From: a bacterium
Lineage (GTDB): Bacteria; UBA8248; JACPRG01; G963555815
NCBI GenBank assembly: GCA_965261595.1
Contig: CBDHDG010000006.1
Location: forward strand, 1,536,001 to 1,600,000
DNA length: 64,000 nucleotides
Direction of reading: 5' to 3'
The translations under genes were made by a program, and so were the position numbers. The stretch's first letter is position 1. Each line of letters starts with the position of its first letter. Below, one piece after another: positions 2,122-15,284 of the stretch. The notes under the pieces were generated by a model. That model saw nothing but the letters and a program-made list of their open reading frames with translations, ran no database searches and was not told the DNA's origin.

Positions 2122-5100
2122 ATGAAGCGCACGAGTGAGCAGGCATTCGAAACCGTGAACGAGGCGCATTTTCTGGCGAACGGCTATGTCTCCATCGTCG
2201 GAAACGGCTTCGACCGTGAGCGTGCGCTCTTTCCCGACACGATCCTCGCTTTCATCCGGGAGACCCAGCCGAAGGAGTGGGCCAAGCTGGAGTCGCTACA
2301 CGGCGACGGGACCGGTGAGCAGGTGCTCGGCGATCTCTGCAAGTGGATGGACATGCACGGCGCGCTCGCGACGCTCCGGCACGGGTTCAAGTGCTACGGC
2401 CGGACCCTCCGCGCGGCGTATTTCAAGCCGGCGCACGCGCTGAATCCCGAGCTTGAGGCCCGCTACGCCGCCAATCGCCAGGGATTCACCCGCCAACTCC
2501 ACTTCTCGCCGCGCTCCGAACAGTCGATCGACGTTACCCTGAGTCTGAACGGCATTCCGATGGTGACGCTGGAACTGAAGAATCTGCTGACGGGCCAGAC
2601 TGTCGAGGACGCGCGGCGGCAGTACCAGCGTGACCGCGATCCGCGCGAGCCCATCTTCGAGTTCAAGCGCCGCGCGTTGGTTCATTTCGCCGTGGACACC
2701 GAATCCGTTCTCATGACCACACGGCTGGCTGGCAAAGCGACGCATTTCCTGCCTTTCGACAAGGGATTCGAAGGCGCAGCCGGCAACCCGCCCGATCCGG
2801 CTGGCCGGACCTACCGAACGGCGTATCTGTGGGAAGAGGTCCTGCAGCGTGACAGCCTTCTCGACCTTCTCGCCCGCTTCATCCACTTGCAGATCGACGA
2901 GAAGTGCGACGATCAGGGCCGCAAAGTCAAGACGGAGACCATGATCTTCCCCCGTTACCATCAGCTTGAGGCAGTGCGGATGCTGGTGGACGCTGCGCGC
3001 AGCGACGGCGTGGGGCACAACTACCTCGTCGAGCATTCCGCCGGCAGCGGGAAGAGCAACACCATCGGATGGCTTGCCCATCGGCTTGCGTCCCTGCACG
3101 ATGCCGCCAACGAGCGCGTCTTCGACAGCGTGATCGTGGTCACCGACCGCGTCGTGCTCGATCAACAGCTCCAGGACACGATCTACCAGTTCGAGCACAA
3201 GCGCGGCGTCGTTCAGCGTATCGATCAAAGCTCGCGTCAGCTCGCCGAAGCGCTCGAGAATGCGGTGCCGGTGATCATCACGACGCTGCAGAAATTTCCC
3301 TTCGTCTCGCGCCATTTGCTCAAGTTGGCCGAGGAACGCGGGACGACCGGCACGGGAACGCTCACCACCCGCCGTTGCGCCGTCGTAGTCGACGAGGCCC
3401 ATAGCTCTCAGGGCGGCGAGACGGCAACGGATCTCAAGGAAGTGTTAGGCGGCGAGGAGCTTCACGAAGAAGCCAAGAGGCGCGCGGCCGAGGAAGGCCG
3501 GGAAGACATGGAAAAACTGTTCCGCAGCATGGCCAAGCGCGGCAAGCAGGCGAACCTGAGTTTCTTTGCCTTCACCGCCACCCCCAAGCACAAGACGCTC
3601 GCCGTGTTCGGCCGCGATGGGCGACCCGCGCACCGTTACACCATGCGGCAGGCGATCGAGGAGGAGTTCATTCTCGACGTGCTGAAGCACTACACCACGT
3701 ACGAGACGTACTTCAAGCTGCTCAAGGCGTGCGAGGACGATCCCAACGTCGAGCGCAAGAAGGCCGCACGGGCGCTGGCGCGGTTCATGAGTCTGCATCC
3801 GCACAACATCGCGCAGAAAACCGAGGTGATGGTCGAGCACTTCCAGGCCGTCACGCGGCACAAGATTGGCGGTCGGGCCAAGGCGATGGTCGTGACAGGA
3901 TCGCGCCTCGAAGCGGTTCGCTACAAGCAGAGCTTTGATCGCTACATTCAGGAGAAGGGCTACGCCATCAAGTCGCTGGTTGCCTTCTCGGGGAAGGTGC
4001 AGGACGACGAGATCGCGAACGTGACCTACACCGAGCCGGGCATGAACCAGGGCATCTCCGAGAAAGAGCTACCTGAGAAGTTCGCGACGCAGGAGTATCA
4101 AGTCCTGCTCGTCGCGGAGAAATACCAGACCGGATTCGACCAGCCGCTTCTCCACACGATGTACGTGGACAAACGGCTGGCGGGCATCCAGGCCGTGCAG
4201 GCGCTCTCGCGGCTGAACCGTGTGCATCCACGCAAGGAAGATACGTTCGTTCTCGACTTCGTCAACGACCGCGAGGAGATCCAGGAAGCCTTTAAGGCGT
4301 ACTACGAAGGCGCGAAGATGGGCGAGGAAGTAGACCCTGCACGCATGTACGCGATCAAGGCCGAGGTGGATGCGTCGGGTGTCTATCTCGATGAGGAGGT
4401 CGATCGGTTCTGCGCCGTTTACTTCAAGCCGAAGCGAAAGCAGAGCCCGTTGGACCACCAAACCATGAATGCCGCGCTCGATCCGGCGGTGTCACGCTTC
4501 ACCACCCGCCGTGACGACGATGAAGAAGAGGCGGAAGACTGGCGCGGCAAGGTTCGGGCATTCCTGAACTTGTACAGCTTCCTGAGCCAGGTGATTCCCT
4601 ACCAGGACTCCGACCTGGAGCGACTGTACGTGTTCTTACGCCATCTCGCGGCGAAATTGCCGCGTCGGAAGAGCGGACCTGCGTACCGCTTCGATGACGA
4701 CGTGCAGCTTGAGTACTACCGCCTGCAGAAGATCAGCGAAGGCTCCATTTCGCTCGAAGAGGGCGAGGTGCGGCCGCTCGATGGGCCAACGGAGGTCGGG
4801 ACCGGATTGGCGCGCCCGCAACCCATGCCGCTGTCGCAGCTTATCGACATCGTGAACGAGCGCTTCGGCACGGACTTCAATCAGGCCAATCAACTCTTCT
4901 TCGACCAGGTCGTTGAAGCGGCAATGGCCGACGACGGGGTACGACAGGCGGCAACGGTCAATCCCGGCGACAAGTTTAAGTTGGTGTTCAGGGGTTTGCT
5001 TGAGAATCTGTTCGCCGAACGCATGGATCAGAACGAAGACATCTTCGTGCGCTTCATGAACGACGAGCCATTTCGGAACGTGGTGACGGAATGGATGTCT

Positions 5101-9297: not shown

Positions 9298-9711
9298 CTC
9301 AATCGCGCTGAAGTGATCGGCCGCCTCGGCGCCGACGTCACCGTCAACCACCTCACCAGCGGCGGACGCGTCGCGAACCTGTCGATCGCCACCGACGAGG
9401 GCTACATCGACAAGCAGACCGGAGACCGGGTCGACAAGACCGAGTGGCACCGGGTCGTGACCTTCCAGCCCGGGCTGGTGGACATGTTCGAGAAGCACGC
9501 GACGAAGGGCCGGCTGGTCTATGTGGCGGGCAAGCTGCAGACCCGTCGCTGGAAGAAGGACGACGAGGACTCCGACCGGTTCTCGACCGAGATCCTGCTG
9601 GTTCCGGGCGGGCGCGTGCAGTTCCTCGACAAGCCCAACGGCAACGGCGCGCCGGTGTCGGATCCGGAGACGCCGTCCGCCGAAGCGCCCATGGACGACA
9701 TCCCGTTCTGA
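9298..9711 (+). CDS. ssb: Single-stranded DNA-binding protein (ATG start appears lost; GTG at 9313)
   Basis: LNRAEVIGRLG, TEWHRVV, GKLQTRRW and the acidic tail DDIPF. Confidence 0.88.
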   Translation, partial: LNRAEVIGRLGADVTVNHLTSGGRVANLSIATDEGYIDKQTGDRVDKTEWHRVVTFQPGLVDMFEKHATKGRLVYVAGKLQTRRWKKDDEDSDRFSTEILLVPGGRVQFLDKPNGNGAPVSDPETPSAEAPMDDIPF

Positions 9712-9905
9712 GCGCGCATTCCGTTTCCTCCCTCTACCTGGGCCGGCGCTTCGCGCGTCGGCCCTTTTTCTTGCTGCCCGTTCCGAGACAGCGCCCGTTC
9801 GCGCCTCGCGCCAGCGCTGCGCGCGGCGCTTCGTCCTCCGGCGCCGGCCGGAGGCGGAGACCGGCCGGTATCGGGCGTTCCCCGTTCATCCAGAGGAGGC
9901 CCGTC

Positions 9906-10937
9906 ATGCCGCCCCCATCGTCCCGTTCCGCATCTCCCGCCGCCGACATCGCCGCCGCGCTCGGCGCGTGCGCCGAGGCCGTCTGCCGGCGTTACCTGCC
10001 CCAGGGCAAAAAGCAAGGCCGGTACTGGGTCGCCGGCGATCTCGAAGGCGCTCGCGGCCGCTCGCTCTTCGTCCGCCTGCACGGTCCCGGCGTCCCCGGG
10101 AAGTGGACCGACGCGGCCACCGGAGAGCACGGCGACCTGCTCGATCTCGTCCGGCATCGCTCGGGCGCGCCGACGCTTCGCGCGGCGCTCGCCGAGGCCC
10201 GCGCCTTCCTCGCCCTGCCGGCTCCGCCGGCGTCGGGCGGGAGCTACGACGCAACAGAAGCGGCCCGCCGCCTCTGGCGGCGTTGCCGCGCCATCGACGG
10301 CACCCATGCCGAAGCCTACCTCCACGCCCGCGGACTCGCGCGCTGCCGGTTCCCGGCATTGCGCTTCCATCCCGAGCTTCGCTATCGCGAAGGCTCTTCC
10401 CTGCGCCGTTTTCCGGCGCTGGTCGCCGCCGTGACCGGCGACGACGGCGCCATCCACGGCGTGCAGCGCACCTGGCTCGATTCGCGCTTGCCCGCCAAGG
10501 CGGACGTCGCGGCCCCGCGCAAGGCGCTCGGCCGCATCCACGGACGCGCCGTGTGCTTCGGCAGGCCCGCCGACGGCGCTTCGCTGCTCGTCGGCGAAGG
10601 CATCGAGACGGTGCTGTCGATCGTCACCGCGGCGCCCGGGGTCATTTCGGCGGCCGCGCTCTCGGCCGGAAGCCTCGGCGCCTTCGTGCCGCCTGCCGGG
10701 CTCAAACAGCTCGTCATCGCCCGGGACAACGATTCCGAGGGGGAGCGGGCCGCCCAACGCCTCGCCCGGCGCTGCGCGCGGGCGGGCGTCGCCGCCCACG
10801 TCATCGTCTCCGAATACGGCGACTTCAACGACGACCTCGTTACTCTCGGACCCCGGGCCCTGGCCCTTCGGCTCGCCGCCCTGTTCCCCGCGCCGCAGCG
10901 GGTCGGAGAGAGGGAGGGAAGAGCGGGGGAGGGATGA
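9906..10937 (+). CDS. Toprim-domain DNA primase of mobile elements
   Basis: GKWTDAATGEHGDLLD, GVQRTWL, VGEGIET, IARDND and GDFNDDL. GAGGAGG RBS upstream. Confidence 0.87.
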   Translation: MPPPSSRSASPAADIAAALGACAEAVCRRYLPQGKKQGRYWVAGDLEGARGRSLFVRLHGPGVPGKWTDAATGEHGDLLDLVRHRSGAPTLRAALAEARAFLALPAPPASGGSYDATEAARRLWRRCRAIDGTHAEAYLHARGLARCRFPALRFHPELRYREGSSLRRFPALVAAVTGDDGAIHGVQRTWLDSRLPAKADVAAPRKALGRIHGRAVCFGRPADGASLLVGEGIETVLSIVTAAPGVISAAALSAGSLGAFVPPAGLKQLVIARDNDSEGERAAQRLARRCARAGVAAHVIVSEYGDFNDDLVTLGPRALALRLAALFPAPQRVGEREGRAGEG

Positions 10938-11484
10938 ACGGATCCAAAGGAGAAAGAGAGCATGGCGCACATCGTCAATCTCAGGCATGCGCCAGCCCTG
11001 CGGGCGGCGCTCGCGGCCCTTCACGGCAAGCCGCTGGCCTTCTGATGCGCGCCGCTGCCCTGCCATGGGCAGGTCCTCGCCCGCGCCGCGCGGCATGGGC
11101 GGCCTCCGTTCTGGCGGAACGGAGGGGAGAGTGAAGCGCGAGAGGGGCGAACGCCGCGAGGAGGGAGAGAGAGGGCCCCGGGCATCGGCAACACGGAAGG
11201 AGAACCGAAATGCAATCCGTTACCTTCAGGAGCATCGCCCGTACGAGTCGAGGGTCTACCACCATGGCAATCTCGCCGGCGAGGTTGCGGAGCCACTCGT
11301 CGATACGCGTCCGTTGCGGTGACGGGCCATGCCGTCTTCGGGCGATCCCTTCGGGCCGGGCTCTCCGCTGCAATCTCCGCTCCGCTCCGATTTTCGCTTC
11401 TATCCCTATCGCCTCCGCTCGCTGGCGCTCGCTGCGCGCTCCTGTACCTCTTATAAGTGACTCTGCGCTTCAATAGCACGGAAT

Positions 11485-11636
11485 TGGGCAGGCCGCCGGG
11501 AGCAACCCTTGCGCGCTCAGTGCCATCAGCACCTCAAGCGGACAGGTGCCCCGGCGGTCCTGCCACGACGGATGCCCCGTGAGGAGTTAGCGCCTTGAGC
11601 GCCAAGTACAGGAGTCGGCAGGCGTCGTGGCAGGCC
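11485..11636 (+). ncRNA. IS110 bridge RNA (target-binding and donor-binding loops)
   Basis: Two stem-loops with internal loops carry TGCGCGCTC/CAAGCGGA (target) and GTGAGGAGT/GTACAGGA (donor). Transcript ends are not determined. Confidence 0.87.
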
Positions 11637-11671
11637 CAGCCACCATCGCACAGATTAGGGAGGGAGACGAA

Positions 11672-13042
11672 TTGGCAGATCTCAAGTGGTTTGTCGGAAT
11701 CGATTGGGGGTCCCGAATCCACCAGGCCTGCATCCTCGACGCGAACGGCGACGTTCGAGCCGAGCATGCGTTCGCCCACGGCGGCGCCGGTTTCGCCGCG
11801 TTGACGGACTGGATTCTGTCCGGCACCGAGGAGGCGCCGGCGGACCAGGTCGGCGTGGCCATCGAGACGCCTCGCGGACCCGTGGTCGAAACGCTCCTCG
11901 GATGCGGCTTCGCCGTTCACTCCATCAACCCCAGGCAACTGGACCGCTTCCGCGACCGTTACTCGCACGCCGGGGCGAAGGACGATCGTCGCGACGCCCT
12001 GGTGCTGGCGTCGGCGCTACGCACCGACCCGCACCGGCTGCTGCGGGTCAAACCAACGGCTCCCGCAATCGTCGAGCTGCGCGAGTGGTCCCGCATCGTC
12101 GAGAGCCTGACGCGCGAGCGGGTGCGCCTGTCCAATCGCATGTGCGACCAGCTCTGGCGTTACTACCCCGAGTTCATCAATGTCGTGGAGGACTTCAATG
12201 TTCACTGGGCACTGGCCCTTTGGAACCGCGTGCCGACGCCCGCGGCCGTGCGCGGCGTCCGGCTTTCCACGCTCGAGAAGCTTCTGAAAAAGCACCGCGT
12301 TCGACGTATCACCGCCGAGGAGCTCCGCGACCAGCTTACCGCGCGCGCCATCGACATCGACCCCAGCGCAATACGCGCCGCCGAGACCCACGCCCGCATC
12401 ATTGCGAAGCAGCTTGCGCTCGTGAACCAGCAGTTGACAGAGGCCAACTCACGTCTCGAGGCGCTCGTCACCCAGCTCGCCGAAGCCGCCCCCGATCCGG
12501 ACGAAAGTTCCGAACCGGGGCAACACAAAGAACAGCGTGACGTGGCTATCCTGCGTTCTCTGCCCGGAGTCGGCACGGTTATCCTCGCCACGCTGTTCGC
12601 AGAGGCCGATGACGCTCTGCAGCGCCGAGACTACCACGCGCTGCGCTGCTTGTGCGGCGTGGCGCCCGTCACCAAGCGCTCCGGCAAGAGCATGCGCGTC
12701 TCCCTCAGACGCGCCGCGCATCGTCGCCTGCGCAATGCCACCTACCATTGGGCACGCGTGGCCATGCAGAAGGACCCCGTCTGCAAAGCCAAGTACCAGG
12801 TGCTTCGCTCCCGAGGCCACGGCCACGCCCGTTCGCTGCGCTCCGTCGCAGACCGCCTCCTCAATGTCGCCTGCGCCATGCTTCGCGACCAGACACTGTT
12901 CGACCCGCAGCACGCCAGCGCTGCAGCAGGTTCACACCGCGAAGCGGTCAATGGAATCTCAATTGAATCATCTGTTGTTGGTCCTGTGGAGCTTGTGGGC
13001 GAGAGGGGCGAGAGTGTGGGCAACGCGGTGGGCAACGCGTAA
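11672..13042 (+). CDS. IS110-family DEDD recombinase/transposase
   Basis: FVGIDWG, VAIE, AKDDRRDA, LPGVG and GVAPVTKRSG. TTG start after AGGGAGGGAG. Confidence 0.93.
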   Translation: MADLKWFVGIDWGSRIHQACILDANGDVRAEHAFAHGGAGFAALTDWILSGTEEAPADQVGVAIETPRGPVVETLLGCGFAVHSINPRQLDRFRDRYSHAGAKDDRRDALVLASALRTDPHRLLRVKPTAPAIVELREWSRIVESLTRERVRLSNRMCDQLWRYYPEFINVVEDFNVHWALALWNRVPTPAAVRGVRLSTLEKLLKKHRVRRITAEELRDQLTARAIDIDPSAIRAAETHARIIAKQLALVNQQLTEANSRLEALVTQLAEAAPDPDESSEPGQHKEQRDVAILRSLPGVGTVILATLFAEADDALQRRDYHALRCLCGVAPVTKRSGKSMRVSLRRAAHRRLRNATYHWARVAMQKDPVCKAKYQVLRSRGHGHARSLRSVADRLLNVACAMLRDQTLFDPQHASAAAGSHREAVNGISIESSVVGPVELVGERGESVGNAVGNA

Positions 13043-13470
13043 GCGTTGTCCACGGACTTGTCCATACGGCCCGCAGGGCTCGCGCCGGTCCTCAGGACTC
13101 GTCCACAAATCCATAGGACTACCCCCTTGCAAGTTGGTGAGGAGTCCGCTTGCCGGGCCGGCGCCCGAGACCCGCGTCTCAATCCCGGAACCGCACAGGG
13201 CGTCCGGGACAGTGGCTAACAATATCCCTCTCGACGTGATGGCCCATTGTCCCACACGTGCTCGCTGCGCCAACCCCGCCTCCGGCGGGGTCCTCCTCTT
13301 CGTTCCGGCCCTGGCTTGCAAGGCTACGGCGCTGAAGCGCCTAGGCGCGCCAAGAACCGCGACGGTGGCTTTGCAGCGCGCGCGTGGGCCACTCAACCAT
13401 CACGTTCGGAGACTCTCTCCGCACAACGAACCATAACGGTTCTCTACACTCAATCCATAAGGAGAGCATC

Positions 13471-14394
13471 ATGCACGATATCGACAACATCTCAGAACAG
13501 AACCAGTCCGTCACCGCCACCGTCTGCGACCAGGCGGCTCTCTTCGGAGCAACCCCGGAGCGCGACGAATTCGACAACCGGGAGGTCTGGGACCCGGAGA
13601 ACGCCCTCTCCGCCGTCACGGAAGCCTTCCGCATCATGGCACACGGCGTCGCCCCCGACGGAACGCAACTCGCCGACGAGCGCGAGAGCCTGCTCTGGGG
13701 ATTCGTCAACATGCTCGACGCCCAGACCCAACGCCTCGACCGCGCGGCCGACAGGCTCCTCCCCGACATGCGCGACCTCCAGCGAGAGCAGGACGGCTCG
13801 GAGATCCGGTCCCGAGAGCTCGAACTCGTCACCGACCGAACCAAGAACCTCACGGACCGGCGGGACGCCTTCGAGCAACTCAGAGATGCAGCGGCCGAGG
13901 CCTACCGGGTCGAGACCGGAGACCTCTGGCGGCCCCGGCGCGGGTCCCACACCTCCCAGACCGGCAAGCTCACTTCGGCCATGATCGATGCCCGCGACTT
14001 CCAGCGTGCCCGCAGGGACCGCGAGAACAAGGCGCTCCTGCCCCAGGGAACGCTCGTCGCGGTGGCAGGCGGCAAGCACGCCGGCGACGCAGGCGCCATC
14101 ATCCGCACCCTCGAGAAGCTCAAGGCCAAGTACGACGACGTGGTCCTGGTCCACGGCGGTGGCCCCGGCGTCGAGAAGATCGCGGCCAAGTGGGCGGACC
14201 GCAACGGCGTCCACCAGATCGTCTGCAAGCCCAACTGGGACGCACACGGACGCGCGGCGCCCTTCCGGCGCAATGACGAGCTGCTCGATCTCCTCCCCAA
14301 GGGCGTCATCGCGTTCCCGGGTTCGGGCATCACCGACAATCTGGTCGACAAGGCGCGCAAGCTCGGCATCCCGGTCCAGTGCGTCGCCGCCTGA
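13471..14394 (+). CDS. DUF2493 (SLOG/YspA-like) protein
   Basis: VAVAGG, LVHGGGPGVEKIA, AAPFRRND and IAFPGSGIT. AAGGAG RBS upstream. Confidence 0.85.
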   Translation: MHDIDNISEQNQSVTATVCDQAALFGATPERDEFDNREVWDPENALSAVTEAFRIMAHGVAPDGTQLADERESLLWGFVNMLDAQTQRLDRAADRLLPDMRDLQREQDGSEIRSRELELVTDRTKNLTDRRDAFEQLRDAAAEAYRVETGDLWRPRRGSHTSQTGKLTSAMIDARDFQRARRDRENKALLPQGTLVAVAGGKHAGDAGAIIRTLEKLKAKYDDVVLVHGGGPGVEKIAAKWADRNGVHQIVCKPNWDAHGRAAPFRRNDELLDLLPKGVIAFPGSGITDNLVDKARKLGIPVQCVAA

Positions 14395-14975: not shown

Positions 14976-15284
14976 ATGGTTCAGACCGTCCAGAAGAACA
15001 TCCGCGTCACCCCCGAGCAGTGGGAGCGCATCGAAAAGGCCGCCGACGAGCGCCGAGTCTCGGCCAATCAGCTCCTCGTCGAACTCGCCATGGAGGCGCT
15101 CGACCGCCGCCGGTGGCCACGCACCGAGGCGGAAATCCATCTCCTGCGCTCCGCAATGTTCACCGCCCAGGCCATGTCCCGCGACATGGCGGCGGCCGGG
15201 CGTGGCGACGAGATCGCCGAAATCGCCCGCAACATCTCCAAGGTCGCGCCGGAGTTTCCCGAAGAGCCGGGTAGAAAGGGCTGA
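14976..15284 (+). CDS. Ribbon-helix-helix DNA-binding protein
   Basis: KNIRVTPEQWERIEKAADERRVSANQLLVELA fits strand-helix-helix; a degenerate paralog lies at 33416. Confidence 0.7.
   Translation: MVQTVQKNIRVTPEQWERIEKAADERRVSANQLLVELAMEALDRRRWPRTEAEIHLLRSAMFTAQAMSRDMAAAGRGDEIAEIARNISKVAPEFPEEPGRKG

Follow-up and report, generated by a model that had tools for sequence, protein, structure and literature searches.

An IS110-group insertion sequence with a two-loop bridge RNA and flanking TCC repeats in a 64-kb bacterial contig segment

IS621 of Escherichia coli (PMC11208160, PMC11208158; PDB 8wt6) is arranged in the order left end (LE), bridge RNA, recombinase gene, and right end (RE). Its bridge RNA combines a 5′ stem-loop with a target-binding and a donor-binding loop; the left guides equal the top strand and the right guides its complement, the core lies inside the guides, handshake bases stand 3′ of the right guides, and a −35 box is found in the RE and a −10 box in the LE. 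ISCro4/IS622 of Citrobacter rodentium (PDB 9t56; bioRxiv 10.1101/2025.05.14.653916) has the fold and the two-loop RNA logic also found in the element described here, and ISPpu10 of Pseudomonas putida (bioRxiv 10.64898/2026.03.19.712850) is a further IS110 element whose LE encodes a bridge RNA and which has a junction promoter, each of the three using a CT core. Bridge RNAs are predicted in 85.7% of catalogued IS110s, and the IS110 group has an LE longer than its RE (PMC11208160). Elements of the IS1111 group (seekRNA) share the DEDD/Ser recombinase family and RNA-guided target choice; their RNA lies in the RE, and they have long subterminal inverted repeats (PMC11208160). Here, we analyze a stretch of 64,000 nucleotides from the bacterial contig CBDHDG010000006.1 (the whole stretch is called the window, and coordinates refer to it). 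Its segment 11440-13147 is very probably a single, structurally complete IS110-group (IS110 family) insertion sequence, which carries a bridge RNA with target and donor loops in its LE and would work, by analogy, through an IS621-like mechanism. This element, known from sequence alone, has the order, RNA architecture, and guide layout of IS621, including the handshake bases and, as candidates, the two promoter boxes.

A sequence-only reading of the window had described the element as a complete IS110-group member and its two-loop bridge RNA as having all four guides matched to target and donor. This description was upheld by family assignment, RNA covariation, and guide/flank covariation, and each of its strings and coordinates was found in the window on direct reading. 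The left junction reads ...GCTGCGCGC-TCC-TGTACC, with TCC at 11440-11442, and the right junction GTGAGGAG-TCC-GCTTGCC, with TCC at 13145-13147; a 3-nt direct repeat (TCC) is thus present on both sides of the element. A non-coding LE of 232 nt is followed by a recombinase frame of 456 aa and an RE of 105 nt. No end-to-end pair was listed as terminal inverted repeats, and none was found among the 25 longest of 40 inverted pairs. The layout is that of the IS110 group, with the LE longer than the RE, the RNA in the LE, and long subterminal inverted repeats not listed. Homologs were obtained by a protein-alignment scan of genome contigs, which yielded 258 confirmed relatives from 352 candidate stretches; the best 80 loci (56-65% protein identity) were kept. 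Their hosts are mostly Vicinamibacterales metagenome-assembled genomes, with some Alpha- and Gammaproteobacteria and one Longimicrobiales genome. The parts of the element and of the interrupted site are as follows.

11433..11439, + strand: left target half (LT), TGCGCGC, equal to the 5′ strand of the first RNA loop at 11510-11516 and co-varying in homologs.
11440..11442, no strand: left copy of TCC, the crossover region (core TC or CC).
11443..11671, + strand: non-coding LE, starting with TGTACC, the right donor half.
11658..11666, + strand: Shine-Dalgarno-like GGGAGGGAG; homologs have AGGAGG at the aligned place.
11672..13042, + strand: recombinase gene with TTG start, 456 aa, comprising a RuvC-like DEDD domain, a coiled coil, and a Tnp (Ser) domain.
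13043..13144, + strand: non-coding RE.
13137..13144, + strand: left donor half (LD), GTGAGGAG, to which T13145 is added if the core is CC.
13145..13147, no strand: right copy of TCC.
13148..13152, + strand: right target half (RT), GCTTG, complementary to 11535-11539.

The protein was assigned to the IS110 family by three profile models. Pfam DEDD_Tnp_IS110 (PF01548) matches residues 8-166 with an E value of 2.4e-33 and 115.5 bits (cut-off 29), Pfam Transposase_20 (PF02371) matches residues 292-376 with an E value of 4e-18 and 66 bits (cut-off 21.3), and NCBIfam NF033542, "IS110 family RNA-guided transposase", scores 169.4 bits (cut-off 140). Among 8000 scored candidate relatives, 7817 had E values of 0.001 or lower, the best non-self match being 85% identical. 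When a profile of 24 relatives was compared with the PDB, two distinct sequences only were retrieved, IS621 (2.6e-15) and ISCro4 (1.3e-12). Residues D11, E65, D105, D108, and S337 align with D11, E60, D102, D105, and S241 of IS621 (the PDB chain of which has two extra N-terminal residues), whose catalytic roles, the serine acting as nucleophile, are described in PMC11208158, and all five are invariant in 24/24 aligned sequences. The AlphaFold2 model of the recombinase has a predicted local distance difference test (pLDDT) value of 75.9 and a predicted template modeling (pTM) score of 0.65, with low confidence in residues 274-287, 314-348 (the Ser loop), and 416-456 (the C-terminal tail). Its top ten PDB matches in Foldseek are all IS621 or ISCro4 chains (E = 5.2e-11 to 8.5e-10; target-normalised TM scores of 0.54-0.59), followed by TIGR-TasR and Nop5-family proteins, and the predicted fold thus matches that of IS621. 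Identity to IS621 is only ~19-21% over the structural alignment, and the window protein is ~130 aa longer.

Translation most likely starts at TTG 11672 and not at GTG 11627 of the listed frame, because GGGAGGGAG precedes the former, the resulting product start MADLKWFVGIDWG aligns with homolog starts, and the in-frame GTG 11627 lies inside the stem of the donor loop and has no homolog counterpart. At the very end of the gene, positions 13016-13039 form a perfect 12-nt tandem duplication (GTGGGCAACGCG twice), leading to the terminus ...VGNAVGNA. The C-terminal tail (residues ~416-456), a region of low model confidence, is missing from most homologs, which have ~420 aa.

The bridge RNA occupies positions 11456-11640 within the LE (~185 nt) and consists of a 5′ stem-loop and two stem/internal-loop modules. 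Folded alone, this segment reaches −91.7 kcal/mol (z −3.33), with 1/200 shuffles as good. From an alignment of 40 distinct upstream sequences, window included, RNAalifold gave the two outer stems together with the hairpin of the donor loop; that of the target loop was placed by eye, as was the 5′ stem-loop. Over 42 pairs in the 40 sequences, 92.9% of the cells hold standard pairs, compared to 33.6-42.7% if the partners are slid by 1-3 columns. Changes on both sides occur in 24/42 pairs, and 0/500 shuffles reach any of five measures. The fold and the homolog covariance model thus bear out the two-loop structure of the sequence-only reading, as the helices are kept through compensatory changes. 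The covariance model has exactly one match in the window (11456-11640, + strand, 153.6 bits), whereas in the window plus the 80 loci (81 sources) it finds 79, with none in L039, L052, and L079 and two in L010. Rfam gave no match at gathering score in the whole window, and three sub-threshold hits near the element are chance hits. The RNA features of the window copy are given below.

11459..11485, + strand: 5′ stem-loop, with both-side changes in 8/9 pairs; it is the weakest helix (76.9% paired), and distant members are poorly aligned there.
11491..11559, + strand: target-binding loop module, with an outer stem pairing 11491-11506 with 11546-11559 (11491-11500 with 11550-11559, including one G-U pair, as first described), an internal loop, and a GTGC/GCAC hairpin at 11520-11532; 14 pairs, 9 with both-side changes, 98.4% paired.
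11510..11518, + strand: left target guide (LTG), TGCGCGCTC, equal to 11433-11441 and co-varying class by class with the left flanks.
11535..11543, + strand: right target guide plus one handshake base, CAAGCGGAC, the reverse complement of 13144-13152; co-varies with the right flanks.
11562..11631, + strand: donor-binding loop module, also an inverted repeat, with a GCGC/GCGC hairpin at 11590-11602 and helices 96.6-98.3% paired (both-side changes in 6/15 pairs); stem 2 pairs 11559-11570 with 11623-11634, the outer stem reaching 11559-11634 in the window copy.
11579..11587, + strand: left donor guide (LDG), GTGAGGAGT, equal to 13137-13145 (9 nt).
11606..11614, + strand: right donor guide plus one handshake base, GTACAGGAG, the reverse complement of 11438-11446; also an inverted repeat.

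Some loci depart from this pattern. The left ends of L039, L052, and L079, which lack a covariance-model match, may be chimeric or decayed. The two matches in L010 (1287-1471 and 3033-3225, 1746 nt apart) belong to tandem elements with a single repeated target unit between them. In L074, L075, and L077, the left ends exceed those of the other family members by ~75-95 nt, with the CTGTAC start ~92-115 nt 5′ of the bridge-RNA match and ~240-260 nt 5′ of the GTACAGG motif of the donor loop.

The sequence-only reading had also expected the loops to track the flanks across homologs, and this comparison was set in advance as the test of that reading. Loop strands were taken from the model-based alignment and junctions were anchored independently of the target loop, the left by the conserved start of the left end and the right by a TT[GT]-N7 box and, after it, the donor 8-mer of the same element. 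An upstream junction was available for 78/79 matches (L030 is cut by the contig end), corresponding to 57 distinct insertions and 32 target-loop classes; the right end lies within the locus in 27 classes. On the left, a 5′ loop strand and the flank of its own insertion have a longest common run of 8.06 nt on average (32 classes), compared to 4.10 nt for 992 mismatched pairs, and the reverse complement of the 3′ loop strand shares 8.37 nt with its own right flank (27 classes) compared to 5.20 nt for 702 mismatched pairs. With the core removed, the values are 4.88 versus 3.04 nt on the left and 4.81 versus 2.86 nt on the right. In each of these four comparisons, 0/10,000 permutations reached the observed value, a count that is not a probability because the classes are related. 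The window loops match their own flanks over 9 + 9 nt and the flanks of the 56 other insertions over at most 5 nt (left) and 6 nt (right). Own-flank runs thus exceed mismatched ones on both sides.

Sequence conservation across homologs is much higher in the donor loop than in the target loop. Four left-donor variants occur (GTGGGGAG; GTGAGGAG, as in the window; GTGAACAG; and GTGGGAAG), and each matches its own right end, a result that is partly circular, as the donor 8-mer located that end. The natural diversity of 32 target-loop classes suggests that the RNA would be reprogrammable. Two side observations concern this data set. In L011, right-end-like sites (box, GTGGGGAG, and TCC) occur at 3096 and 3292, 196 nt apart; only the second precedes the sequence specified by the element's own right target guide, and the first may be a solo right end. 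In contig OZ219745.1, two of six copies of one class (L033 and L042) sit at sites unlike their own target loop (runs of 3 nt left and 5 nt right), which match the loop of a co-resident class (8 or 6 nt left, 10 nt right; compared with L040, L041, L043, L044, and L055). This would mean that the bridge RNA of a relative worked in trans on an element with identical donor ends, or else that recombination took place between the elements; bridge RNAs acting in trans have already been published (10.64898/2026.08.14.744561).

The two bases that follow each right guide of IS621 on its 3′ side form pairs with the partner DNA once the top strands have been exchanged (PMC11208158, PMC13626964), and therefore the reverse complement of the 3′ strand of a loop should read as the integrated junction. 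For the target loop of the window, this reverse complement is GTCCGCTTG, equal to 13144-13152, and for the donor loop it is CTCCTGTAC, equal to 11438-11446; both matches are 9 nt long, one more than with the reconstructed target or circle junction. The right guides of 8 nt that had been proposed, CAAGCGGA (11535-11542, the reverse complement of 13145-13152) and GTACAGGA (11606-11613, the reverse complement of 11440-11447, i.e., 8 nt to TCC plus the left end), thus hold for the reconstructed target and circle; the integrated junction is matched over nine, the ninth being the handshake base, as in IS621. Of the donor-loop handshake bases in homologs, the first is identical to the target base beside CC in 30/30 distinct cases (C 24, G 2, A 2, T 2), and the second matches in just 12/30. 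The 3′ strand of the target loop carries an invariant GGA at fixed register in 32/32 classes, followed by C in 25/32 (GGAC), which is complementary to the donor GTCC.

The window alone cannot separate TC and CC as the crossover dinucleotide, because donor and target share TCC and the products are identical either way. From the family comparison, the dinucleotide is probably CC. Specifically, CC precedes TGTAC at 57/57 left junctions (56 homologous insertions and the window), a count that follows from anchoring on CTGTAC (in L036, the second C reads T, within the anchor). The base before CC can be C, G, A, or T, and the handshake position changes with it, as expected if it is a target base. Empty copies of the commonest target class have three C in 8/8 cases and those of a second class in 4/5; in occupied sites, the left side has three C and the right side two. 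Therefore, the donor reads GAGT-CC-TGTAC, and at the crossover no dinucleotide other than CC is shared by donor and target. With CC as the core, the last base before it on the left is T11440. The sequence-only assignment of "a TC rather than CT core" was hence right in rejecting CT, whereas TC is disfavored by the family comparison, which prefers CC inside TCC.

A crossover at TC, with LT TGCGCGC, RT CGCTTG, LD GTGAGGAG, and right donor half (RD) CTGTAC, is the less likely reading. The left target guide of the window matches through TC and then stops (A), the core would be covered by all four guides with a single U-G pair, and the resulting 7+2 left target guide would mirror IS621 (PMC11208160). 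With CC, in turn, this guide carries A at the second position of the core, and in the left donor guide U and A face the CC; in IS621, pairing to both core strands is strongly preferred (bioRxiv 10.1101/2024.01.24.577089). Most homologs have UU at the core positions of the left donor guide, which could wobble-pair with bottom-strand GG, and the left-guide core mismatches may reflect either a weakness of the window copy or a clade difference. TC would, however, need C as the first right-target base in all classes, with TCC following the left donor half at 46/47 right junctions (45/46 homologous insertions and the window), and it is further opposed by the C counts of empty versus occupied sites, by the variable, handshake-tracked base before CC, and by the invariant GGA of the target-loop 3′ strands.

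If IS621 is taken as a guide, the first loop would read the target, its 5′ strand corresponding to the left target half plus core and its 3′ strand being complementary to the core plus right target half, and the second loop would read the element's own joined ends likewise. The element would be excised as a circle, and a tetramer of the DEDD/Ser recombinase would hold both loops and exchange strands at the dinucleotide within the shared TCC, CC being the favored one. The additional base 3′ of each right guide would not pair with the partner DNA until the top strands have been exchanged (the handshake). By the same analogy, the element at 11440-13147 would be transcribed, form circles, and be catalytically competent, and it may be active at present.

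Circularization would bring three sequence boxes together at the junction.

13127..13132, + strand: candidate −35 box TTGCAA, 4 nt before the left donor half, at the same place as the TTGACA, TTGCAA, or TTGACT boxes of homologs.
11445..11450, + strand: candidate −10 box TACCTC, aligned with TACCTT or TACCCT in homologs (LE consensus CTGTACCtT).
11452..11457, + strand: alternative −10 box TATAAG, lying in the circle 17 nt after TTGGTG (13134-13139).

In the computed circle junction, TTGCAA lies 17 nt from TACCTC, as had been noted from the sequence together with the weakness of the −10 box; this pair scores 6/12, its −35 box being at the homologs' position. The best pair is TTGGTG-17-TATAAG with 8/12, which is disfavored as the junction promoter since its −35 box has no homolog counterpart. 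Conservation thus supports TTGCAA/TACCTC as a weak, putative junction promoter. Note that one of the homolog right-end comparisons required TT[GT] at the −35 place and the other did not.

Several results weigh against an intact element of the kind proposed. The promoter pair at the conserved position scores just 6/12, neither candidate −10 box has the final T, and a promoter scan of 11200-13400 in the integrated state gave 0 sites. With CC as the core, the mismatches of both left guides count against it as well. In 10 of the 57 insertions, the run shared with their own loop is at most 5 nt long on one side; L011 is among them, where the first of the two right-end-like sites was taken, giving a 3-nt miss that was kept in the counts. 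The permutation counts ignore relatedness among classes, and the nearest relatives with DNA compared are only 56-65% identical in protein, while proteins of 78-85% identity exist. By the covariance model search, there is just one copy of the element in 64 kb, and the window contains no second copy of the target with three or fewer mismatches in 19 (the best has 4 mismatches in 16). The uninterrupted site could not be read in 373 matching plasmid records, as those spanning both flanks are ~65-72% identical in the genes only and their spacer cannot be aligned.

Another reading, which we consider doubtful, accepts the anatomy but takes the copy for a resting or crippled relic whose weak junction promoter and left-guide core mismatches would now prevent it from moving. 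The single copy in the window would fit a relic, as would TACCTC with C where most homologs have T, a left target guide ending in CA (20/28 distinct loop strands end in CC at fixed register, the registers not being uniform), the TA at the core of the left donor guide, and the 12-nt tandem duplication at the 3′ end of the gene. Against it stand the open reading frame with intact catalytic residues, the intactness of all helices, and guides matching the present site over 9 + 9 nt, which would decay in an old relic; moreover, homologs with U or A at the core positions of the left donor guide are multi-copy. Chance complementarity in GC-rich DNA, with the left end as a mere 5′ untranslated region, is extremely improbable: short GC-rich words do recur in the window, and many repeats of 10-16 nt were listed, but the positions of the four matches coincide precisely with the junctions and with internal-loop strands, and neither the permuted guide/flank sums nor the shuffled folds reached those observed. 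Membership in the IS1111 group with a guide RNA in the right end, suggested only by the shared recombinase family, is equally remote, given an LE of 232 nt exceeding the RE of 105 nt, a structured RNA in the LE, no long subterminal inverted repeats, and a layout opposite to that described in PMC11208160.

The structurally complete IS110-group element is flanked on the left by a DUF7146/toprim gene (9444-10937) and on the right by a DUF2493/YspA-type SLOG gene (13384-14394), beyond which lies a NikA-like gene (14976-15284), surroundings reminiscent of a conjugative plasmid or integrative element backbone. The toprim-DUF2493 pair is found as neighbors on many alphaproteobacterial conjugative plasmids (Rhizobium, Sinorhizobium, Methylobacterium, Paracoccus, and others), with a gap of ~350-380 bp in two plasmid records versus 2446 bp in the window, the element accounting for ~1.7 kb. 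At these two plasmid loci, the best matches to the computed target have 3-4 mismatches of 16. As a separate observation, the commonest Vicinamibacterales target (L008 1243, L010 1244, L012 1235) is a repeated unit, GGGGTCCC[AT]TTTCA..GTGGCCAC, which contains a palindrome. It is found empty and occupied within a few tens of bases and is therefore regarded as a repetitive extragenic palindrome (REP)-like target. ISPpu10 likewise targets a repeated palindrome-containing unit, as many of the window's homologs do; its target has a 5′ stem-loop aiding recognition, and no DNA stem-loop of this type was found in the left flank of the window (z +0.81).

Compared to IS621 with its CT core, the window element is flanked by TCC (core CC or TC), and junctions of its family carry an invariant CC. 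Its right target guide covers 5-6 target bases, compared to 4 in IS621 (PMC11208160), which also describes long right guides for IS110 elements, and in its left donor guide, U or A stands at core positions that are fully matched in IS621. ISCro4/IS622 and ISPpu10 also differ from it in their CT core, and ISCro4/IS622 is distant in sequence. The element is an IS110-group member by all features tested save the CT core, which defines only the IS621-like subgroup. IS621 tolerates AT, GT, and TT cores, and IS110 family cores span ~1-5 nt (bioRxiv 10.1101/2024.01.24.577089); a CC or TCC core was not mentioned in the IS110 literature covered by the full-text searches and passages. The loop strings and protein motifs of the clade that were tried do not occur in the seven text-form supplementary files of PMC11208160, a weak hint that the clade has not been singled out previously.

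For the window, these results provide a firm annotation of one IS110-group element with its bridge RNA, boundaries, and interrupted site. As the element belongs to a known family, it adds little in kind to the field. A more general view, which we regard as rather unlikely at present, is that recombination in the clade, whose members come from Vicinamibacterales and several lineages of proteobacteria, may take place at an invariant CC core, with right guides tuned to the product junctions through full core and handshake pairing and a left donor guide meeting the core only by U-G wobbles or mismatches. If this asymmetry of the guides is functional, it could set core specificity and the balance of insertion and excision in a manner unlike IS621, the clade would offer a recombinase for CC-centered sites, and shared donor ends would let the RNA of one element move the circle of a relative, as suggested by the two of six copies in one genome located at the target of a co-resident class. 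Overall, the element points to a distant clade, ~20% identical to IS621, with 32 target-loop classes, longer right guides, and a C-rich core, and such orthologs are candidates for widening the range of sites addressable by bridge recombinases.

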